Shown here in pieces: positions 3,376 to 14,566 of a stretch of DNA of 17,396 nt (positions are counted from its first letter, which is position 1; each line of letters opens with the position of its first letter). A program made the position numbers and the translations under genes. Location: contig CAZXFC010000023.1 in assembly GCA_964640425.1 (NCBI GenBank), positions 1-17,396 on the forward strand, in the 5' to 3' direction. Under the pieces are notes generated by a model, which was given only the letters and a program-made list of their open reading frames with translations, was not told the DNA's origin and did no database searches. This stretch comes from an uncultured Candidatus Saccharibacteria bacterium (GTDB taxonomy: Bacteria; Patescibacteriota; Minisyncoccia; UBA11713; 2-01-FULL-45-33).

Positions 3376-3405
3376 TAACTGTCATACTAAGGCAGTTTTT
3401 TCTTT
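3376..3405 (+). terminator. Terminator-like hairpin (aactg-11 nt loop-cagtt, then T-tract) just outside the 3' hairpin of IS-like element A
   Basis: Stem 3377-3381/3393-3397 followed by tttttctttt. No plus-strand gene ends here, so it may be an insertion-target structure rather than a functional terminator. Confidence 0.25.
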
Positions 3406-4076
3406 TATTCCAGCATTAATGTTAGAAGCTCGGTGTCTAACAATTTTGCCGTGCTGGATTTTACAAAACCGAGGTATTCCACTTTGTTTGCGAATTGGTC
3501 CAGGACGATATCCGGCAGCAAAAGAGGTCCCCATCGATTTGTCACAGTATAGTCCTGATAGCTGGACCACGTATATACGTGGTCTTTTTGTTTCCACTCT
3601 TTCATTTCTCGCGGATTACGGTGAATATATGCTGAAAGATGTAGAAGCTGCCGATCATCTTCGACATGTACAATTTTATACGGACCTTGGAACAAATGGC
3701 CGGATTTATTATATTTTGTATTGAAATATTTTGTGTATGCCGTAAGAACTCTTTGCATATATTGCGAAATACCGCCTTCAATGCCTTCTTTTATGGTCAG
3801 ATGAAAATGATTTGGCATTAAAGCAAAATTTACTAATTCCACAGAGCGATTTTTTATAATTTCGGCAATCATTGATTTATCGATGTTAAAAGCTCGGTGT
3901 CTAACAAATCTAGACACGTATCGGCCGATGTTATAGAGAATTTCCGGAGATTGGAAATATAAAATCAAGAATAAGAAGCGTGCCTTGTCTTTTTCGTCAA
4001 GAAAGATTTGCTGTTTATTATTGCCGCGATTGAAAAGATGGTAATACTCTCCGGGCGCGATAGGTGTTGTTCTCAT
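3405..4076 (-). CDS. tnpA: Y1 (HuH) tyrosine transposase, IS200-like / REP-associated (RAYT-like, COG1943-type), 223 aa
   Basis: N-terminal G-E-YYHLFNRG motif, HuH motif LMPNHFHL, and C-terminal catalytic-Tyr helix LSAYIHRNP. Paralogous (roughly 35-40% identity by eye) to the CDS at 5201-5836. Confidence 0.8.
   Translation of the reverse strand: MRTTPIAPGEYYHLFNRGNNKQQIFLDEKDKARFLFLILYFQSPEILYNIGRYVSRFVRHRAFNIDKSMIAEIIKNRSVELVNFALMPNHFHLTIKEGIEGGISQYMQRVLTAYTKYFNTKYNKSGHLFQGPYKIVHVEDDRQLLHLSAYIHRNPREMKEWKQKDHVYTWSSYQDYTVTNRWGPLLLPDIVLDQFANKVEYLGFVKSSTAKLLDTELLTLMLE
3419..3447. repeat. Element A terminal hairpin repeat, 3'/RE side (atgttagaagctcggtgtctaacaatttt). Stem tgttaga/tctaaca, loop agctcggtg.
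   Basis: Exact 29/29 match to 4094-4122. It lies inside the last 14 codons of tnpA-A. Confidence 0.85.
3883..3911. repeat. Element A internal copy of the terminal hairpin (atgttaaaagctcggtgtctaacaaatct), same orientation, 26/29 identity
   Basis: It lies inside the tnpA-A reading frame and encodes FVRHRAFN. An overlapping alternative stem gtgtcta/tagacac is also present. Hairpin centre is 211 nt from the 5'-side copy and 464 nt from the 3'-side copy. Confidence 0.8.
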
Positions 4077-4171: not shown

Positions 4172-5116
4172 ATGCTTTTTAAGCTCCTTGCAAATATTTA
4201 TACGGCCGGACGCACATTCGGTGAAGCGAAGCCCAGGATTGATGCGCTTACAAGGCGAGGTTTTAGCGTGACGAGCGATATTTTGGGTGAATTTAACAAA
4301 GATCGAGAGAGAATTGAACAAGCGGTTGACGAGTATTTACTGCACATGCAGGTACTGGGCTTACTGCAAAAAGCCAAAGGAACCGGAAATATTGTAAGCC
4401 TGGCCGTTAAGCCGTCGCGTATCGGGCTTGAACATTCATATGGGGTTTTCCAAAAAAATCTTCATATTATTGCCGAAGCCGCTAAAAATGCGGGAATATT
4501 TCTTTGGACTGACGCTGAAAAAAAGAAAGACCGAGAAATAGTTACCGTCTCGAATATAAGAGAGCGTGCCATGGGCTTCGATAATATAGGGCAGGCAATT
4601 CAATGTGTCCATTCCGATGCCGAAAAATTTATTGAAGAACTTCTTAAATGGAATATTGGTATTCGTTTTGTGAAAGGCGCGTATACTGACGGAGACCTGA
4701 AAAAAGACACGGACATTGTCCAAAATTTTAAAAATTGTTTTTGGTCAGCGCTTTTTCATTTCAGAAATTCAAAGGAAAAAGCTACTATAGCCGCGGCTAC
4801 CCACGATAGCAGGCTCATCGATTATGCGCTCAGGTTCAGGGAAATAGATCCGGATCTCGCGCAATTTATCCAGATTCAGATGCTATATGGTATCCGCGTG
4901 AAGCTGTGGTTTGAGCTTATAAGGAAAGGGGTTGATCTTTTGATATACGTCCCTTGGGGACCCGACCGGATCGGCTTCTTAAAGCGCCGACTCAAAGAAG
5001 GCATCCAGCCGGGCGCCAAATGGCTTTTTATCAGGAATATTTTCGAAGCGTGGTTTTATAGATTTTCTGATGACTATCCTTACGGTTTTGGAGAAGATAC
5101 TTTTAATAAAAAATAA
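4172..5116 (+). CDS. Proline dehydrogenase (monofunctional PRODH, PutB-like), 314 aa, N-terminus about 20 aa shorter than typical homologues
   Basis: Motifs conserved in the PRODH barrel: IGIRFVKGAY (compare LRIVKGAY), AAATHD (compare VATHD), FIQIQMLYGIR (compare FQMLYGMR), YVPWGP, and FLKRRLKEG (compare MRRLAERP). SD-like aagg lies 6 nt upstream of ATG 4172. An in-frame upstream stop at 4154 fixes the start. Confidence 0.8.
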   Translation: MLFKLLANIYTAGRTFGEAKPRIDALTRRGFSVTSDILGEFNKDRERIEQAVDEYLLHMQVLGLLQKAKGTGNIVSLAVKPSRIGLEHSYGVFQKNLHIIAEAAKNAGIFLWTDAEKKKDREIVTVSNIRERAMGFDNIGQAIQCVHSDAEKFIEELLKWNIGIRFVKGAYTDGDLKKDTDIVQNFKNCFWSALFHFRNSKEKATIAAATHDSRLIDYALRFREIDPDLAQFIQIQMLYGIRVKLWFELIRKGVDLLIYVPWGPDRIGFLKRRLKEGIQPGAKWLFIRNIFEAWFYRFSDDYPYGFGEDTFNKK

Positions 5117-5162: not shown

Positions 5163-5188
5163 ACTTGGCTTCCCGAGACCTAAGTGCT
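5163..5188. repeat. Element B 5'/LE hairpin (acttggc-ttcccgaga-cctaagt, stem with a 1-nt bulge)
   Basis: Shares ttcccgagacctaagt(N)tgct with the 3' copy. Confidence 0.8.
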
Positions 5189-5200
5189 ATATTGCGCGGC

Positions 5201-5836
5201 ATGAGAAAATCAAAATTTGTAAATGGGGAATTTTATCATATTTATAATCGCGGAACCGACAAAAGAGTAATTTTTTCCGATCAATACGACTTTGAGCGCT
5301 TTCTTCGGGCTATGAACGAGTTTAACTCAATCAAGCCGGTTGGCAGCCTTTACGAAAATTCTTTTCGCGACCGACTTAGGTCTCGGGAACCTAAGTTGGT
5401 AAATATCGTTGCTTATTGTCTAAATCCAAATCATTTTCATATTATTTTAGAGCAAATGAAAAACGGCGGGATAAGTAATTTTATTCAAAAACTTGGAGGT
5501 GGGTATGCTAATTATTTTAACGCTAAATACAAAAGGTCGGGAACTCTTTTTCAAGGAAGATTCAAATCAAAGCATGTGGATTCAAATGAATATTTATTGC
5601 ATTTAAGCGTATACGTAAATTTAAATAATAAAGTTCATAAAATAAAAAATCAGAACTTCAGATCAAGTTGGGATGAATATATGAGAGATAACAAAACAAG
5701 CTTGTGCGGGACAAAAATAATTTTGGATCAGTTTAAGAATTCAAAAGAATACAGGATTTTTTCCGAAAGCTCTTTGGTGGATATATTACAAAGGAAGGAA
5801 ACGCACAAGGAGATAGAAAATCTGTTGCTAGAATAG
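5201..5836 (+). CDS. tnpA: Y1 (HuH) tyrosine transposase, IS200-like / RAYT-like, 211 aa from ATG 5201
   Basis: MRKSKFVNGEFYHIYNRG aligns with MRTTPIAPGEYYHLFNRG of the paralogue. HuH motif LNPNHFHI and catalytic-Tyr helix LSVYVNLN are present. The ORF-track start at TTG 5165 was rejected in favour of ATG 5201 on the strength of this alignment. Confidence 0.8.
   Translation: MRKSKFVNGEFYHIYNRGTDKRVIFSDQYDFERFLRAMNEFNSIKPVGSLYENSFRDRLRSREPKLVNIVAYCLNPNHFHIILEQMKNGGISNFIQKLGGGYANYFNAKYKRSGTLFQGRFKSKHVDSNEYLLHLSVYVNLNNKVHKIKNQNFRSSWDEYMRDNKTSLCGTKIILDQFKNSKEYRIFSESSLVDILQRKETHKEIENLLLE
5374..5396. repeat. Element B internal hairpin (acttaggtctcgggaacctaagt), the exact reverse complement of the 23-nt 3'-end hairpin
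   Basis: It lies inside the tnpA-B reading frame and encodes LRSREPKL. Hairpin centre is about 211 nt from the LE hairpin and about 465 nt from the RE hairpin. Confidence 0.8.
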
Positions 5837-7800: not shown

Positions 7801-8244
7801 TTGGCGGATAATTTGGATTATAGGATCAAAAGAAATCTTGTATCGGCTTGTCTTGAGATGATTGACACAATGTTTACAAAGGAAAAACTTTCGGGAACCG
7901 GCGCGTCAGAGGAGCTTATTTTTGCGGCGCTTGCCGAGATAACGAATGCGCATTGCGAGTTTGAACAGGATGCGGAATTTATGGTACATCTCGTAGTTGA
8001 TAATTATTTAAGTCCTTTAAAAAGCCTTATGCCGCAAGCGGTAAATTTGGCACCAATATTTGTTGTGTTTTGCAAAAACAATAAATTTCATTATGAGCTT
8101 AAAATGGTAAACTCGTATGAAATGAATGAACTGATCTGGGCCGGAAAAACCGATATGGATCCGCGAATAAGCGTCATCGAAAATTGGGGATTATTGGTGA
8201 GAATGGATTGGACCCCAAGGCTATTACCGAAACCGCGAAATTAA
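7801..8244 (+). CDS. Hypothetical protein, 147 aa (start uncertain: TTG 7801 or ATG 7858)
   Basis: ORF with a downstream intrinsic terminator. AT-rich like the adjacent methyltransferase. No recognisable motif. Confidence 0.4.
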   Translation: MADNLDYRIKRNLVSACLEMIDTMFTKEKLSGTGASEELIFAALAEITNAHCEFEQDAEFMVHLVVDNYLSPLKSLMPQAVNLAPIFVVFCKNNKFHYELKMVNSYEMNELIWAGKTDMDPRISVIENWGLLVRMDWTPRLLPKPRN

Positions 8245-8260
8245 GTCTGCTTGCAGGCAG

Positions 8261-8289
8261 AAGCCTGCACTTGCAGGCTTTTTCTTTTT
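8261..8289 (+). terminator. Rho-independent terminator (aagcctgc-actt-gcaggctt, then tttttcttttt)
   Basis: 8-bp GC-rich stem plus T-tract. An alternative overlapping stem gcaggc-agaa-gcctgc lies just upstream. Confidence 0.7.
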
Positions 8290-8307
8290 GTGCTAAAATC
8301 TAGCATT

Positions 8308-8565
8308 ATGACAGTAAGGATGCGTCACACGCCGTCTCACACGGCAAACAGGAGGAGTCACCATGCGTTATCAGGCGTGGTCTCGGTAAAATGCGCCAAA
8401 TGCGGAATTGATGTCCTGCCTCACCGCGTTTGCGCAAATTGCGGCTTTTATAAAGGCAGAGAAGTCGTGGATGTGCTTAAAAAATTGACAAAAAAAGAAA
8501 AGAAAGCGAAGCAAAAAGAGATAGATGCACATACCCACGAAGTGGGAGAACCGGAAAATAAATAA
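8308..8565 (+). CDS. rpmF: 50S ribosomal protein L32 with a zinc ribbon and a Lys/Glu-rich C-terminal extension
   Basis: RRSHHAL...CAKCG...HRVCANCGFYKGREV matches L32 (RRTHFKL...CPSCG...HRVCKACGSYNGKDI). Start taken at ATG 8308. The ORF-track start 8251 overlaps the upstream terminator and was rejected. Confidence 0.75.
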   Translation: MTVRMRHTPSHTANRRSHHALSGVVSVKCAKCGIDVLPHRVCANCGFYKGREVVDVLKKLTKKEKKAKQKEIDAHTHEVGEPENK

Positions 8566-8633
8566 AAATTCAAATAGATTCTCTCTCGGCAAAAGCATCT
8601 TAACAATTCAACCATTTAACCACTCAACGACTT

Positions 8634-9551
8634 ATGGCAAACAGACACTTATCCAGATCAATCGCGATGCAGTCGCTTTTTGAATTGGATTTTTACGGTC
8701 GCCTCGGAGGGAAAATGGCCGCAAAGAAAAAAGAACTGGGAGAGATACTTCTGCGCACTATAGAGGAATTCGGACCCGGGCTCGACGACGGAAGTTTTGC
8801 CAAAAAAATCGCCATGGGAGTTTTGGAAAAACAGGAAGATATCGACGATATCATACAAAAAGCGGCGCCCGAATGGCCCATCGCGCAAATCGCTCCCGTA
8901 GACAGGAATGTCCTGCGCGTCGGGCTTTATGAATTGCTTTTTGGCGAAAGAAAAGAAGTCCCGCCAAAAGTGGCCATAAATGAATCAATCGAGCTTGCCA
9001 AAAGTTTTGGAGGGGATTCCTCAGGTAAGTTCGTTAACGGAGTTCTGGGAACGGTTTACAGGGAACTCGGCGAGCCGGGTAAAGACGACAAGGGCAAAAA
9101 AGGCGAGCTGTTGGATTTAAACAAGCTTCCCAAAGAAGAGCTAGGAGGCGCGGTGGTGATACGCCGCGAACGCGACAATGTTTTATTTGCCATGGTGCAC
9201 GACGTTTTTGGTCGCTGGACCTTTTCAAAAGGGCACCTGGAAAAAGACGAGACCATTGAAAACGGAACTTTACGCAAAATAAAAGAGGAATTCGGGATAA
9301 CAAATCTGAAACTGCTCAAAAAAATTGGCGAGAACGAATACATCGCTTCTGACCCTGATACCGGACCTACAAGGAGGCACGTGAGCTACTTTCTGGCCGA
9401 GACGAAAGACAAAGTGCTCAAAGTTGACAGGTCGGGTGGGTTGGACGACGCCCGCTGGTTTGATTCCGAAGAAGTTCACGGACTTAAAATGTACGACGAC
9501 ATAAAGCACCTTTTGGACGAAGCTGAGGAGGCTCTAAAGATCGTAAAATGA
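8634..9551 (+). CDS. nusB: NusB (transcription antitermination factor) fused in one ORF to a C-terminal Nudix hydrolase domain, 305 aa
   Basis: N-terminal NusB motifs (RHLSRSIAMQSLFELDF...RNVLRVGLYELLF...INESIELAKSFGG..KFVNGVLG). After a Lys/Gly linker comes GHLEKDETIENGTLRKIKEEFGI, which fits the Nudix box Gx5Ex7R[E>K]UxEExGU with one substitution. Confidence 0.8.
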   Translation: MANRHLSRSIAMQSLFELDFYGRLGGKMAAKKKELGEILLRTIEEFGPGLDDGSFAKKIAMGVLEKQEDIDDIIQKAAPEWPIAQIAPVDRNVLRVGLYELLFGERKEVPPKVAINESIELAKSFGGDSSGKFVNGVLGTVYRELGEPGKDDKGKKGELLDLNKLPKEELGGAVVIRRERDNVLFAMVHDVFGRWTFSKGHLEKDETIENGTLRKIKEEFGITNLKLLKKIGENEYIASDPDTGPTRRHVSYFLAETKDKVLKVDRSGGLDDARWFDSEEVHGLKMYDDIKHLLDEAEEALKIVK

Positions 9552-10249
9552 TGAATTTTGAAGAGTTTGAAAAAAATATAGGTGTTGAGTTTAAAGACAA
9601 GGATCTTTTAAGGATAGCACTCACGCACAGATCTTTTTTGAATGAGAACCCTGCGGTTGCGGGGGAAAAAAAAGAGCACAATGAACGCTTGGAATTTTTA
9701 GGAGATGCCGTTTTGGAGCTCGTCATAACCGAACATTTATATAAATTCTTTCCGGACAAGCCGGAAGGGGATCTTACCAGTTTCCGCGCTTCACTGGTGA
9801 ATGCAAACATGCTTGGCGAGGTGGCGCGCGACCTTAATTTTAATAAATTCTTATTGTTGTCGCGGGGAGAAGCCAAAGATGTGGGCCGCGCCCGTCTTTA
9901 TATATTAGCGAACGCTTTTGAATCGGTAACGGGCGCGATTTACCTCGACCGCGGATACGACATGGTCAAAGATTTTATTTTGCGGGTTTTGGAGCCGAAA
10001 ATCGGCGAGATCGTCGAAAAAAAATTATATCGTGATGCCAAAAGTTTTTTTCAGGAGGAGGCACAGGAAAGGGAAAGTGTCACGCCTACATATAAAGTCA
10101 TCAAAGAATGGGGCCCCGACCACGACAAGCATTTTATTGTCGGGGTTTATCTTGGCAAAGAACTTATCGCCGAAGGCGAAGGACCTTCAAAACAACAGGC
10201 TCAGCAAATGGCCGCCGAGGGGGCGTTAAAAACAAAAGGCTGGGAATGA
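9548..10249 (+). CDS. rnc: Ribonuclease III
   Basis: RNase III signature ERLEFLGDAVLELVI and a C-terminal dsRBD. 4-nt ATGA overlap with the upstream gene. Confidence 0.9.
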   Translation: MMNFEEFEKNIGVEFKDKDLLRIALTHRSFLNENPAVAGEKKEHNERLEFLGDAVLELVITEHLYKFFPDKPEGDLTSFRASLVNANMLGEVARDLNFNKFLLLSRGEAKDVGRARLYILANAFESVTGAIYLDRGYDMVKDFILRVLEPKIGEIVEKKLYRDAKSFFQEEAQERESVTPTYKVIKEWGPDHDKHFIVGVYLGKELIAEGEGPSKQQAQQMAAEGALKTKGWE

Positions 10250-10277: not shown

Positions 10278-10304
10278 AACCTCTATTTGCGTAGAGGTTT
10301 TTTG
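10278..10304. terminator. Bidirectional intrinsic terminator between convergent rnc and the Nudix operon (aacctcta-tttgcg-tagaggtt, flanked by A- and T-tracts)
   Basis: 8-bp stem with aaaa on its 5' side and tttttt on its 3' side. The stop codon and last 6 codons of the minus-strand Nudix gene lie within it. An extra hairpin ccgaaac-taa-gtttcgg sits at 10250-10266. Confidence 0.7.
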
Positions 10305-10756
10305 GTAAAAAAATCGCGGATAATTTGCTGGTGCGAATAGAATAAATTTCGCGGGATGGCCGAAAGCTTGAACCATTGCGGCGAATTGCCGCCTGACGGT
10401 GTTTTATTTTCAAGCATTTGCCCGCCCGTGATCTCAACCAAATAAACGTACCGCACGAATTTGTTTCCGCGTTCTTGATTTTCCAGCTCTTCAAAAGAAA
10501 CTAAGTTTTTCAGCTTTGAATCAAATCCTGTTTCTTCTTTAAATTCCCTTTGTACGGTCGTTGCCGGATTTTCCCGGCAGCAGTCTTTTTCAAGCCATTT
10601 ATTATCGCAGCACTTGCCGCCGGACAAAGACCAGCGCCATTCGTCCTTTGCGTCATATCTGTTTCCATTGCCTTCGCAAACCAGCAGAACTTCCGTATCG
10701 TAAATTCCTTTTTCAAGGTTTTTGAAGCAAAGCGCCAGAACAGCATGTTTTGACAT
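10283..10756 (-). CDS. Nudix hydrolase, 157 aa, with a Cys-rich insertion in the Nudix box
   Basis: Perfect REFKEETGF (REUxEExGU) preceded by GGKCCDNKWLEKDCCRENPATTVQ. An AAGGAG SD lies 6 nt upstream. The start overlaps the upstream stop as TGATG, consistent with translational coupling. Confidence 0.75.
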   Translation of the reverse strand: MSKHAVLALCFKNLEKGIYDTEVLLVCEGNGNRYDAKDEWRWSLSGGKCCDNKWLEKDCCRENPATTVQREFKEETGFDSKLKNLVSFEELENQERGNKFVRYVYLVEITGGQMLENKTPSGGNSPQWFKLSAIPRNLFYSHQQIIRDFFTKKPLRK

Positions 10757-11808
10757 CAGAGCTCCTTCTTTCTGTCGGCGAATTCTACGAAATTGTTTTT
10801 CTTTGTGAATTCATCCCACATTTTTTCGTCCGGCAAGTCAAACGACGGCATTACTACTGAAGGAGCCTGTCTAAGCATCGGGCACGGCGGGAATGTGGTC
10901 TCAAGATGTTTCAGTGGCTCGTCGTATTTAACCCAGCCGAAGTCTCTTACGAATTTGCGCAAGAGGTACATTAGTCCATGTGCGTGCTTGTTGTAAAAGT
11001 TACCGGGATTCAAAGAGAGTATCGGCAAAATTTCCGGCGGTTCGGTTTCCTCGGGCACGCCTACAGTGTTCAATTCACCGTCCGGGTATTTGATTTCGAA
11101 AAAGAAAACTTCGTGGTCTACTGTCTGGTTGTCCGGGTCGTTCCTGTCGTATTGGTAGAAGCGCACCAAGCGCTCAAAAAGCGGTTCGCAAACAGCGTGG
11201 CCGCCTGCGTTCGTTTTTTTGCGCACGGCCACAAGTCCCGTCTCTTCGACGAATTCTCTGGCAAGCGCGTAATCGGAATAATGCTCGCCGGGAGCGCCGT
11301 ATTCAGTGCCGCTTTCAAAGAGTTCTTTCATCTTGGCGCTTGAGTAGAACATCGCTTTCGCGCTCTCATCATGATCAAACTGTTCTATCTTGCCGAAAGG
11401 AAGTCCATACATGTCCGGCTTCGGAGCCCAATACATTCCGGCGGGGTAGGCGAGCTTCGTAATCCAGTTGGGAAAGTGCCGCCGAGCGGACATCTCTGCG
11501 ATGCGCGCTTCTTTTTCTTCTTCGGGGCAATTGCGCAATCTTTCTTTTACGAGTTCCAGATGCGGCGGATGCCAAATTTTTTGTATCCCGGTTTCCGTAT
11601 TTCTCATTTCCCAATATCCGTAAATCCAATTCACTTGGCCCGTTTTTCTCTTGGTATTCCACGGGCTTACGATATTGAATCCTTTTTCAAGGAGCTCTTG
11701 TGTTACGACTATCTCGCGCTTGTTTGCTGAACGCCTCAAACCTTCTTGAACCAATGCATCCGTAAGCGGGGGCAGGTAGAGGCCTCCTACAGAACTTGAA
11801 GTTATCAT
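10756..11808 (-). CDS. Nudix-domain protein with an approximately 180-aa N-terminal domain of unknown function, about 350 aa from ATG 11808
   Basis: Central AREFVEETGL Nudix-box core (REUxEExGU). A strong AGGAGG SD lies 5 nt upstream of the internal Met (MITSSS...), so 11808 is preferred over the ORF-track start at 11835. Confidence 0.7.
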   Translation of the reverse strand: MITSSSVGGLYLPPLTDALVQEGLRRSANKREIVVTQELLEKGFNIVSPWNTKRKTGQVNWIYGYWEMRNTETGIQKIWHPPHLELVKERLRNCPEEEKEARIAEMSARRHFPNWITKLAYPAGMYWAPKPDMYGLPFGKIEQFDHDESAKAMFYSSAKMKELFESGTEYGAPGEHYSDYALAREFVEETGLVAVRKKTNAGGHAVCEPLFERLVRFYQYDRNDPDNQTVDHEVFFFEIKYPDGELNTVGVPEETEPPEILPILSLNPGNFYNKHAHGLMYLLRKFVRDFGWVKYDEPLKHLETTFPPCPMLRQAPSVVMPSFDLPDEKMWDEFTKKNNFVEFADRKKEL

Positions 11809-11946
11809 AAAATCCTCCTGCCTATAAATCAGCATTAATTATTTGTGTTGTATAGATTGACAAAAGAACTACAAGTGTCCTTATGAAATTCAGATGAAGA
11901 TGCTTCATATAACTTCATCTTGACCACATCTTCACTTTTTTTATTT

Positions 11947-12057: not shown

Positions 12058-14241
12058 ATGCTGCTTAAACGTTTAGAGATAAACGGGTTTAAATCGTTCG
12101 CCAAGGCGGCGGTTTTGGAGTTTCCCACAAAAATTACGGCGATCGTAGGGCCCAACGGCTCCGGAAAATCCAATGTCGCCGATTCTTTGCGTTGGGTCTT
12201 GGGAGAGCAATCAATGAAAAGTCTTCGCGGAAAAAAAGGCGAAGACTTGATATTCGCGGGAACCCCGCAAATTGCCCGCATGGGCAAGGCGTCGGTGTCT
12301 TTGGTTTTCGACAACAGAAAGAAAATTTTCCCGGTTGAATTTGACGAAGTGGCGATTTCACGGAGGATCTATCGCGACGGTTCAAATGAATATGTTTTGA
12401 ACGAAAGCCAGGTGCGTCTGAAGGATATTATCGAGCTCCTCTCCAAAGTCGGCCTGGGGGCTTCCCAGCACCACATAATCGCTCAGGGCGATGCAGACCG
12501 AATACTATACGCTTCGCCAAAAGAAAGAAAGTCCATGATAGAGGAAGCGCTTGGACTCAAAATTTTTGAACTTAAAAAAACGGAAGCCGAGAGAAAACTT
12601 TCGTCAACGGCAGAGAATATTAAGCAGGTGGAATCTCTGCGCCGCGAGATATTGCCGCACCTTAAATATTTGGACGAGCAAGCGCGAAAGATGAGAAATG
12701 TTTCGGAACTTAGGCGGGAGCTTGAAGCGCTAATGGCCGAATATGTTGCAAGGGAAATAAAAACTTTGGCTCTGGAAGAAGGCGCTTTAAAAAAAGAAAA
12801 GGTTCCGCTTGCCGATAAGCTGAAAAAACTTGAGTCGGCTCTTAGCGAGGCAGAGGAGATTTTGGGCAAAGAATCTGGTGTTTCCTCCACGCAGGCCTTT
12901 TTTGAAGACCAAAAAAAACTTGATTCCTCGCTTACCGCGTTGGCAATGAAGCGAAGAGAGGCGGAACGCGACATCGCTAAAATGGAAGCGGCTTCTTTGC
13001 GTCCCCGCGAAGCAAAGGAAGATTCGCTGCCCAAAGATAAAGTCAAGTCCATGCTTTTGGAGCTTGCGGATAATTTGGAATCGGCTTCGCGCTCCGGGAC
13101 AATGGAACTGATAAGGAACACGATATTTGCCGCAACTCAAAAAATTTACAAATTTCTTGAATCGCTTGGGGAGGGCGGATTTACTCCGGCGCAGGAAAAT
13201 ATTTCACAGGAACTGAAGAGGCGCGAAGCGGAGCTTGCAAAGATCGGGAAAGAGGAAGAAGAATTATTGCAAAAAAAGAAGATATTGGAAAAAGATTATT
13301 CCGAGAAAGCGGAACGCGTGGCACGCGAAGGCGCGCTTTTCCGGCAGAAGACCGAAGAGATAGCGCGTACGCGCGATGAACTCAGGAATTTAGCATCCGG
13401 AGAAGAACGCCTTTTGGCGGCAAAAAAAGAATTCGAGCTTGATTTCGGCGCTATGCTCGCGAAAACGGAACCGAATGGTGAAATTTTGTCGGAAAACGAA
13501 AGGGTACAGATGAGGAAGAAAGTTGAGAGGCTAAAGATCCGCCTGGAAGAAGCCGGCGGAGTGGACGAGAATGTTTTGAAAGAATATGACGATACCAAAA
13601 AACGCGACGAATTTTTGGCGAAAGAACTGGAAGATCTGAAAAAGGCGTCAGAAAGCCTAGGTTCGGTTTTCGGAGATCTGGCGGAGCGTATTGAAAAAGA
13701 TTTTGACGGGGGCCTTTCAAAGATAAATAAACTTTTCGGGGAATTTTTCCATGAAATTTTCGGCGGCGGTAAGGCGGAAATAAAACTTATGAAGCCCGCC
13801 AAGAAAAAGCCAGCTATCGATGACGAGGAATGGGAATCCTCCTTCGCCGAGGCTTCGGAGGACGAGGAGGAAGAGGGGATCGAGATAATAGTTGATATTC
13901 CGAGAAAACGCATCAAAAGCCTGAACATGCTTTCCGGGGGCGAGCGCGCGCTTACTTCGATAGCGCTGCTTTTTGCCATGTCCACGGTTAATCCTCCTCC
14001 GTTTCTGGTGCTAGATGAGACGGACGCCGCGCTGGACGAGGCCAATTCTAACCGTTATGCTTCTATGCTCCGGGAGCTCGGTAAAAAAACCCAGCTTGTG
14101 GTCGTAACCCACAACCGGGAGACGATGAAAGCCGCCGATGTGCTGTACGGCGTAACAATGGGCAACGACGGCGTGAGTAAATTGTTGTCGATTAAATTTG
14201 AGGAGGCGGAAGATGTTTTAGCGAAAAAAAAAGCGCCCTAA
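12058..14241 (+). CDS. smc: SMC chromosome condensation ATPase, unusually short (727 aa) and apparently hinge-less
   Basis: N-terminus LEINGFKSF...ITAIVGPNGSGKSNVADSLRWVLGEQS (Walker A) and the conserved FDEVAISRRIYRDGSNEYVLN match canonical SMC. C-terminus has LFGGGKAEIKL, signature LSGGERALTSIALLFAM, Walker B LVLDETDAALDE and VTHNRETM. Rnc-smc synteny is conserved. The middle is coiled-coil-like (E/K/R/L-rich) with no recognisable hinge glycine motifs. Confidence 0.8.
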   Translation: MLLKRLEINGFKSFAKAAVLEFPTKITAIVGPNGSGKSNVADSLRWVLGEQSMKSLRGKKGEDLIFAGTPQIARMGKASVSLVFDNRKKIFPVEFDEVAISRRIYRDGSNEYVLNESQVRLKDIIELLSKVGLGASQHHIIAQGDADRILYASPKERKSMIEEALGLKIFELKKTEAERKLSSTAENIKQVESLRREILPHLKYLDEQARKMRNVSELRRELEALMAEYVAREIKTLALEEGALKKEKVPLADKLKKLESALSEAEEILGKESGVSSTQAFFEDQKKLDSSLTALAMKRREAERDIAKMEAASLRPREAKEDSLPKDKVKSMLLELADNLESASRSGTMELIRNTIFAATQKIYKFLESLGEGGFTPAQENISQELKRREAELAKIGKEEEELLQKKKILEKDYSEKAERVAREGALFRQKTEEIARTRDELRNLASGEERLLAAKKEFELDFGAMLAKTEPNGEILSENERVQMRKKVERLKIRLEEAGGVDENVLKEYDDTKKRDEFLAKELEDLKKASESLGSVFGDLAERIEKDFDGGLSKINKLFGEFFHEIFGGGKAEIKLMKPAKKKPAIDDEEWESSFAEASEDEEEEGIEIIVDIPRKRIKSLNMLSGGERALTSIALLFAMSTVNPPPFLVLDETDAALDEANSNRYASMLRELGKKTQLVVVTHNRETMKAADVLYGVTMGNDGVSKLLSIKFEEAEDVLAKKKAP

Positions 14242-14252
14242 GCGCTTTTTAA
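14231..14252. terminator. Intrinsic terminator overlapping the smc stop (aagcgc-cctaa-gcgctt, then ttttt), A-tract upstream, probably bidirectional
   Basis: Seen directly. It also lies at the 3' end of the minus-strand ORF 14249-14566. Confidence 0.6.
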
Positions 14253-14566
14253 GAAGTGTAGTCTTTGCTTATCTTTGCCAAGCGGGATCCGAATATATAC
14301 GCAAAAATAATTGCTATCATGGTGGTTGCGGCTTTGAATTGCAGGCAGGCCGAGCTATAAGCTGCATAGTCGAAGATGCTTTTCTCAAAATCAGCATCGC
14401 AGTCGGTTCCAACGAACAGCATTGCTATTGATAAGAAAATAATTACTGTGCCTGATCCAACCATAAAAAAAGAGCTAAACCAAAGTAAATTTTCCGAAAA
14501 ACTACCATTGAAAAGCTCGCACTGCATTTGCCGAGACTTTTTTATATAACTCCAAATAAACTGCAT
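14249..14566 (-). CDS. Small membrane protein, hypothetical, 105 aa
   Basis: Good SD: AAAAAGGAGAG lies 3 nt before the ATG on the minus strand. Two or three hydrophobic segments. No known motif. Confidence 0.45.
   Translation of the reverse strand: MQFIWSYIKKSRQMQCELFNGSFSENLLWFSSFFMVGSGTVIIFLSIAMLFVGTDCDADFEKSIFDYAAYSSACLQFKAATTMIAIIFAYIFGSRLAKISKDYTS

Follow-up and report, generated by a model that had tools for sequence, protein, structure and literature searches.

What does a Nudix domain do when it is built into NusB, a universal core factor of bacterial rRNA transcription? The question is raised by a gene at positions 8634 to 9551 (+ strand) of the 17,396-nucleotide (nt) stretch analysed here as a whole and called the window (contig CAZXFC010000023.1 of assembly GCA_964640425.1, from an uncultured Candidatus Saccharibacteria bacterium). 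This gene, hereafter named nusB-nudix, encodes a NusB protein that continues into a Nudix domain. Judged from sequence comparison across the family of such fusions, the Nudix half seems closer to a nucleotide reader than to an enzyme; an active decapping enzyme appears less likely, and a pure scaffold is possible.

Architecture and distribution of the fusion

The gene is a single continuous open reading frame (ORF) of 305 amino acids (aa) plus the stop codon, without any internal stop. Its first part is an all-helical NusB domain (aa 7-143; 8652-9062, + strand) that matches PF01029 with an E-value of 3.6e-32 and 112 bits, against a cutoff of 23.1, and scores 120.2 bits with the NCBIfam nusB equivalog TIGR01951 (cutoff 88.35), which makes it a NusB member by profile. 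A Lys/Gly-rich linker, GEPGKDDKGKKGELLDLNKL (aa 146-165; 9069-9128, + strand), in which GEPGK is invariant within the near family, leads to a Nudix domain of the diadenosine tetraphosphate/hexaphosphate (Ap4A/Ap6A) hydrolase type (aa 173-289; 9150-9500, + strand) that matches PF00293 (E-value 7.5e-16, 58.8 bits, cutoff 21.1). Compared with NusB as known from Aquifex (3R2C) and from TIGR01951, the N-terminal 145 aa pass the equivalog and superpose with a template modelling (TM) score of 0.88, but the window protein adds 160 aa of linker and Nudix domain.

The public gene call for this contig (P0001, NCBI, 278 aa) begins at Met28. All homologues align from Met1 (ATG at 8634) and support the 27 N-terminal residues that P0001 omits (8634-8717), including the Arg-rich N-terminus MANRHLSRS, which is near-invariant among them; the deposited gene start is therefore probably wrong.

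An AlphaFold2 model of the window protein, based on a 39-sequence alignment, contains two confident domains joined by a linker whose residues 147-160 have a predicted local distance difference test (pLDDT) value below 50, with a predicted TM score (pTM) of 0.59. The linker is predicted to be disordered or flexible, and no fixed orientation of the two domains is predicted. Seven helices are predicted over aa 2-145, and the NusB half superposes on the NusB of the NusB-NusE-BoxA complex (3r2c/3r2d, TM 0.88-0.89), with 1tzv and 1eyv as further fold matches (TM 0.79-0.83). In the fold search, residues 165-300 of the model matched about 40 Nudix structures at a probability of 1.00. The best match was the Aquifex Ap4A hydrolase 3i7u (TM 0.85-0.91), and others included the Ndx1 Ap6A hydrolase, CT771, the C. 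elegans and human Ap4A hydrolases and also NrtR (3gz8). A preliminary description of this locus, made from the letters alone, had proposed a NusB domain followed by a Nudix domain; both were confirmed by Pfam, TIGR01951 and the fold search, and the C-terminal region is indeed predicted to adopt a Nudix fold.

Both Pfam domains were present in all of the 120 best database homologues (59-100% identity), which stem from NCBI, ENA, JGI and Logan assemblies and which, where named, are labelled only ‘NusB’. A scan of GTDB with one genome per species, using search patterns taken from the NusB half, returned at least 598 stretches encoding relatives, the best 80 of which are referred to below as the related loci. 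Fusions were found in 80 of these 80 (81 of 81 with the window), the alignment covering both halves in all but one. The source genomes are Giovannoni-, Niyogi-, Ryan-, Lloyd-, Kaiser-, Nomura-, Adler-, Taylor-, Vogel- and Zambryskibacteria, together with some named ‘Paceibacterota/Minisyncoccia’, all within the Parcubacteria group of the Patescibacteria; the window's source is likewise counted as a parcubacterium, and its nearest relatives are Giovannonibacteria-like. An exhaustive HMMER search of representatives clustered at 50% identity yielded about 60 clusters of full-length fusions, the most distant at 32% identity. The fusion is widespread across Parcubacteria, in at least 80 species-level genomes, and not rare.

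A general caution applies to metagenome contigs, in which a frameshift, a missed stop or a chimeric assembly can join neighbouring genes, and it is all that speaks for an artefact here. The ORF is stop-free, and the same architecture stands in the 120 homologues, the 80 loci and the roughly 60 clusters. Because the two-domain frame recurs in hundreds of independent assemblies, we consider a frameshift or chimera excluded and an artefact of any kind extremely improbable, and the uninterrupted fusion through a Lys/Gly-rich linker stands as first described. Its description as an unrecognised architecture was borne out in part. No paper on a NusB-Nudix fusion, and no description of any enzyme-derived domain on NusB, was found in full-text literature searches, which miss much subscription literature, and the lineage-wide architecture is apparently undescribed. 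On the other hand, these proteins are abundant in public databases as ‘NusB’, and domain-architecture databases certainly list the NusB and Nudix combination.

Origin, catalytic box and nucleotide pocket of the Nudix half

In a single-sequence search, the closest solved structures were CT771 (4.3e-09), Ndx1 (4.3e-08) and NUDT2 (1e-05). A family profile built from 34 diverse fusion Nudix domains placed aq_158 first (E-value 3.5e-20), followed by CT771, NUDT2, Ndx1 and the C. elegans enzyme. The top eight matches were all diadenosine polyphosphate (ApnA) hydrolases, and Dcp2 and MutT1 ranked below them. The suggestion that NusB tethers an RppH- or NudC-type remover of RNA 5' pyrophosphates or NAD caps is not supported. 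Scores with the RppH equivalogs were 22.7 against a cutoff of 118 (NF001936), 20.0 against 139 (NF001937) and 15.6 against 241 (NF001934), while the NudC equivalog NF001299 gave 26.8 against 158 and covered the Nudix core only. As the best sequence, profile and fold matches all lie with the Ap4A/Ap6A group and the RppH and NudC models stay far below their cutoffs, the Nudix half is, as far as sequence and model can tell, a descendant of the ApnA hydrolase branch (aq_158, Ndx1, CT771, NUDT2) and not an RppH or NudC orthologue.

With the solved Ap4A/Ap6A hydrolases (3I7U; 1VC8, Thermus thermophilus Ndx1; 4ILQ, Chlamydia CT771; 3U53, NUDT2), the window domain has in common a W-T-x-x-K-G motif, a phosphate-binding Lys and two stacking aromatic residues. 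It differs from them in being fused to NusB and in carrying Lys in place of the ‘RE’ Glu, and many fusion members also lack EE.

The Nudix box GHLEKDETIENGTLRKIKEEFGI (aa 200-222; 9231-9299, + strand), as read from the sequence, fits GX5EX7R[K]UXEEXGU. Its residues are G200-X5-E206-X7-R214-K215-I-K-E218-E219-F-G221-I, so that the complete GX5EX7REUXEEXGU pattern is lacking at Lys215 (codon AAA, 9276-9278, + strand). Since the domain is Nudix by profile and by fold and yet lacks the complete box, neither canonical Nudix hydrolase nor Ap4A hydrolase is an appropriate label for the window protein. In the alignments, the residues equivalent to Lys215 are Glu46 in Ndx1 and Glu58 in human NUDT2. Ala occupies this position in the mutant chains deposited as 4ick/4ijx (the title of 4ijx reads ‘E58A mutant’) and 1xsa, which were reportedly made to trap ligand complexes. 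The change from RE to RK that had first drawn attention to this domain is real, but it is not special to the window protein. At position 215, scorable in 116 of the 120 nearest homologues, 75 have Glu, 30 Lys, 5 Arg and 6 another residue, and across all fusions examined the position is occupied by E, K, R, A, V, I, G, Q, T or L.

The box was also scored in wider sets. EE is kept in 68 of 79 GTDB species loci, 31 of which have a fully canonical box. Among 57 diverse 50%-identity cluster representatives, 23 keep EE, only 9 have the canonical G-E-RE-EE-G box, and 29 have at most two acidic residues at the four Glu positions. EE is missing in 47 of 257 fusions. The minimum number of changes at each position was counted on one neighbour-joining tree of these 257 sequences, a crude tree on which absolute counts are inflated and the comparison between positions is reliable. 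Position 215 had changed 58 times, the highest count of the positions tested, followed by Arg214 (35), Glu218 and Glu206 (31 each) and Glu219 (12); the counts for Tyr236 (11), Tyr287 (9), Trp275 (7) and Lys199 (4) were lower. No column tracked the switch between Glu and Lys/Arg at 215 when 200 sequences were compared column by column; the best reached a total-variation distance of 0.53, at variable surface positions. By these sequence comparisons, no part of the Nudix domain is less conserved across the fusion family than the catalytic Glu positions.

The nucleotide pocket is kept more strictly. In at least 80% of 60 diverse representatives a single residue occupies each of the positions Gly172, Asp190, Trp195, Thr196, Lys199, Tyr252, Trp275 and Tyr287, and Tyr236 is conserved at 76%. 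Profile alignment to human NUDT2 equates Lys199 (9228-9230, + strand) with Lys42, the phosphate-binding residue of the human Ap4A hydrolase, Tyr236 (9339-9341, + strand) with the adenine-stacking Tyr82, and Tyr287 (9492-9494, + strand) with Phe128, the other residue that stacks the adenine. A sulfate at the P1 phosphate site of Ap4A hydrolases is contacted by Lys42 and Tyr82, and the adenine is sandwiched between the conserved Tyr (Tyr82) and a Tyr or Phe, Phe128 in the human enzyme (PMC4734340). Nudix Ap4A hydrolases are described as sharing a stacking Tyr or Phe that follows the box (PMC2425470). Lys is present at 199 in 253 of the 257 fusions and in 44 of the 47 that lack EE; the corresponding numbers are 251 and 44 for Tyr or Phe at 236, and 248 and 42 for Tyr at 287. 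As Lys199, Tyr236 and Tyr287 persist even in members with a dead box while the catalytic positions change, selection in the fusion family acts, on the alignment evidence, more to preserve the nucleotide pocket than to preserve the catalytic metal site.

A distant fusion, P0174 (locus L083, 6001-6900), has neither RE nor EE, no recognisable Nudix box and no Pfam NUDIX match. Its structure is nevertheless predicted with a pLDDT of 92.6 and a pTM of 0.72 as a NusB domain and an Ap4A-hydrolase-like Nudix fold (3i7u, TM 0.84). The linker of P0174 is predicted to be helical and apparently rigid, in contrast to the disordered linker of the window protein.

Candidate functions of the Nudix half

A non-catalytic Nudix reader is expected to combine a degenerate box with an attached functional module, and the window protein has both, Lys215 and the fusion to NusB. 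Because the pocket residues are kept while the catalytic residues erode, and because Lys215 stands at the metal-binding ‘RE’ Glu, the reading we tentatively prefer, at somewhat less than an even chance, is that the Nudix half acts mainly as a nucleotide or 5'-end reader tethered to NusB, hydrolysis being weak or dispensable. The family-wide evidence thus favours the earlier surmise that the domain is a binding module or catalytically altered.

We infer that the fusion serves as the cell's NusB. Together with S10, the NusB half would bind BoxA on the nascent pre-rRNA and build an antitermination complex that aids RNase III processing. This would explain why the coupling to rnc, the RNase III gene that would be translationally coupled just downstream of nusB-nudix, is conserved. 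The Nudix half would bind a purine nucleotide on its polyphosphate, with slow or absent turnover in the Lys215 protein. The ligand could be the 5' end (a triphosphate, ppp, or an Np4 cap) of a BoxA-bearing transcript, or a free signal of the ApnA or nucleoside triphosphate (NTP) type. Through such binding, the ligand would influence how the NusB complex assembles or how stable it is, and in this way would affect rRNA elongation and processing. The furthest version of this proposal is that Parcubacteria own a nucleotide-sensing antitermination factor, whose Nudix domain reads either the ppp or Np4 cap at the 5' end of the BoxA-bearing nascent transcript or a free signal of the dinucleoside-polyphosphate or alarmone type, and gates assembly of the rRNA antitermination/RNase III-processing complex; we regard it as speculative and unlikely.

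Parts of such an arrangement are known elsewhere. In NrtR, whose structure is among the fold matches, ligand sensing by a Nudix domain with a degenerate box controls an attached winged helix-turn-helix (wHTH) DNA-binding module; there the ligand is ADP-ribose, the domain belongs to the ADPRase subfamily and not to the ApnA type, and the partner is the wHTH domain. The NUDT9-H domain of TRPM2, also of the ADPRase subfamily, is said to have RIL in place of REF and to be a degenerate Nudix domain that senses ADP-ribose while attached to an ion channel. CFIm25 (NUDT21) is a Nudix fold with a degenerate box in an RNA-processing machine, the mammalian cleavage factor Im of RNA 3' processing. Two of its box glutamates are missing, the ‘RE’ Glu among them, and it binds Ap4A (Kd 2.4 uM) and ATP but hydrolyses neither (PMC2425470). 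CFIm25 differs from the window protein in being eukaryotic, dimeric and not fused to NusB, in having no detectable specific sequence relationship to it, and in lacking two glutamates, compared with one in the window. On the NusB side, RsmB, the 16S rRNA m5C967 methyltransferase, is a precedent for an N-terminal, RNA-binding NusB-fold domain fused to an rRNA-directed catalytic domain, but its fused domain is a methyltransferase and it is not an antitermination NusB; RsmB models match aa 49-148 of the window protein far below their cutoff (50 against 319 bits).

Part of the evidence weighs against a reader. In the 120 nearest homologues, EE is kept in 118 and the box is fully canonical in 70, and in the window's own subfamily Arg214 and Glu206 are each conserved above 90%. 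Metal binding, and perhaps catalysis, may survive in this subfamily, where Lys or Arg at 215 might be tolerated or might alter rather than abolish activity. The change counts come from the crude tree mentioned above, and the pocket residues were placed by alignment to solved Ap4A hydrolases and not on model coordinates; of the conserved residues, Trp195, Thr196, Tyr252 and Trp275 may be kept simply as parts of the fold core. A rival reading is an active, tethered ApnA/RNA 5'-end pyrophosphohydrolase or Np4-decapping enzyme. NusB would bring it to BoxA-bearing nascent RNA, where it would process the 5' ends of rRNA leaders, or of its own mRNA, during transcription and next to RNase III. The near family does keep Gly200, Glu206, Arg214, Glu218 and Glu219, the closest relatives are real ApnA hydrolases, and the operon is conserved together with the translational coupling to rnc. 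RppH-type Nudix enzymes, moreover, also strip Np4N caps and take Ap4A in the same site (PMC9283932). RppH shares the Nudix fold with the window domain, acts on RNA 5' ends and binds Ap4A, but the window protein scores 15-23 bits against RppH cutoffs of 116-241. RppH needs its box glutamates to hold three Mg2+ (PMC9283932); essential there, they are unprotected in the fusion family. The window protein itself has Lys at the position equivalent to Glu58. The lability of position 215 (at least 58 changes), the losses of EE in 47 of 257 fusions, the few canonical boxes (9 of 57 diverse representatives) and the low RppH and NudC scores argue that catalysis is not what selection maintains across the family. 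Efficient enzymes would be found in no more than a subset of the fusion members, probably without the window protein, and we consider an active enzyme somewhat unlikely.

The dispensability of the catalytic residues across the family would suit a structural scaffold, in which the Nudix fold serves purely to contact proteins or the RNA body and stabilises the antitermination complex in the manner of SuhB. In E. coli, this enzyme-fold protein is added to NusB/E at BoxA, locks the rrnTAC and favours processing by RNase III; its recruitment stabilises NusB/E residence and improves co-transcriptional RNase III cleavage (bioRxiv 10.64898/2026.03.17.712431). SuhB has an inositol monophosphatase fold, however, and is a separate polypeptide. 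The rigid helical linker predicted for P0174 (pTM 0.72) suggests a fixed two-domain body, and a related lineage that manages with an unfused NusB in the same operon marks the Nudix domain as accessory. What speaks against a scaffold is that the invariant residues Lys199, Tyr236 and Tyr287 line the nucleotide pocket of the Ap4A hydrolases and do not form an arbitrary surface patch. We judge a pure scaffold to be unlikely, and a reader tethered to NusB remains the reading we prefer.

Genomic setting and significance

The gene order in the 80 related loci, namely dnaE (on the opposite strand), rnhB, rpmF, nusB-nudix, rnc and smc, is essentially invariant where the contig reaches. The rnc gene lies downstream in 77 of the 80, that is, in all loci reaching far enough, and is directly adjacent in most; rpmF lies upstream in 78, and the remaining two loci start too near the fusion gene for this to be judged. 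Two very distant fusions, P0168 and P0174 (35-37% identity), also keep rpmF, nusB-nudix and rnc in this order. In the window, rnc (9548-10249, + strand; Pfam Ribonuclease_3 and dsrm) overlaps the end of the fusion gene, whose stop codon shares 4 nt (ATGA) with the rnc start at 9548, and the same overlap recurs in four close relatives. The position directly upstream of RNase III, pointed out in the preliminary description, is thus conserved in related loci, close relatives and distant members alike.

Upstream, rpmF (ribosomal protein L32; 8308-8565, + strand; PF01783) is probably the first gene of the operon. It is preceded by a terminator-like hairpin (8259-8292, + strand; a 10-bp stem with a T-run after it) that ends the preceding unit, from which rpmF, nusB-nudix and rnc likely form one transcription unit. 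The ORF call for L32 (8251-8565) is over-extended at its 5' end and includes the hairpin in the extension, the likely start being the ATG at 8308; the L32 of the window has a Lys-rich C-terminal tail. This rpmF-nusB-rnc setting differs from the ribH-nusB neighbourhood of pseudomonads. On one related metagenomic contig, an unfused NusB of 144 aa, 59% identical to the NusB half of the window protein, is encoded between rpmF and rnc. As this unfused NusB occupies the same position in a related lineage, comparison of these sequences indicates that the rpmF-nusB-rnc arrangement is the older one and that the Nudix domain was added to it in a specific lineage.

The leader of the fusion gene contains a tentative BoxA-like element, GCATCTTAACAATT (8595-8608, + strand). 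Of the four close relatives, two (L088 and L089) conserve it as GCAACTTAACAATT, and two (L087 and L090) do not. The boxA consensus is GYTCTTTAANA, and genes of Nus factors are autoregulated through boxA (PMC5725501). Of 79 related loci, 18 have G[TC]TCTTT in the 60 nt that precede the fusion gene, compared with 1 of 77 for rpmF, 1 of 35 for rnhB, 1 of 62 for smc and 0 of 76 for rnc. It is often preceded by the -10-like hexamer TATACT (12 of 79 loci, where 0.9 are expected). This distribution suggests that the fusion gene may be autoregulated by NusB through BoxA. If the BoxA sites are true and lie a few nt from the 5' end of the transcript, the NusB-tethered domain could reach that end. A promoter scan of the + strand between 7600 and 10400 gave no sigma-70-like promoter, and scans of the window gave no Rfam families or tRNAs.

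In the window, rnc and smc are separated by two further Nudix genes, encoded on the opposite strand (10283-10756 and 10756-11835); most related loci have a short gap or none between rnc and smc. The first encodes a 157-aa protein with a Cys-rich insertion (CC...CC) within its Nudix box, of which L089 and L090 have a 156-aa type, and the second a 359-aa protein with a canonical REFVEETGL. Both were considered as paralogues or as the source of the fused domain and were rejected, as their BLASTP similarity to it was not significant. P0236, considered as a stand-alone Nudix relative, was set aside too: its gene begins 39 nt from the contig end and is most likely a truncated fusion.

Further along, the structural maintenance of chromosomes (SMC) homologue (12058-14241, + strand) has 727 aa, compared with 1181 positions in TIGR02168. 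As the matches cover only the head regions, this implies that its coiled coil is much shortened. In many related loci, the tblastn matches of smc are likewise restricted to the two ends. Two genes resembling IS200/REP-associated tyrosine (Y1) transposases, of 223 aa each and 35% identical (3405-4076, - strand; 5165-5836, + strand), flank a proline-dehydrogenase-like gene (4172-5116), and relatives of these Y1 genes also occur near the cluster in L002, L036, L054 and L078. ORFs of 147 aa (7801-8244, + strand) and 105 aa (14249-14566, - strand) have no Pfam match; L087 to L089 carry between rnhB and rpmF a gene of 141-155 aa, also without Pfam match, that is similar in size and position to the former.

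The distribution of the fusion means that a whole major lineage of the candidate phyla radiation (CPR) has fused NusB to a Nudix domain of the Ap4A-hydrolase type and has retained the fusion, over very deep divergence, in an unchanging operon that also encodes L32 and RNase III, and that hundreds of public ‘NusB’ entries conceal a second domain. Judging from the eroding catalytic site and the preserved pocket, the family appears to offer a natural case of the conversion of an enzyme into a reader. If RNA 5' ends or ApnA are indeed bound, non-canonical caps or alarmones would be linked directly to rRNA antitermination and processing, a link that to our knowledge has no counterpart in model bacteria. 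Bacteria with minimal regulatory repertoires would then have gained direct control, by a small molecule or by the RNA 5' end, over rRNA elongation and maturation.

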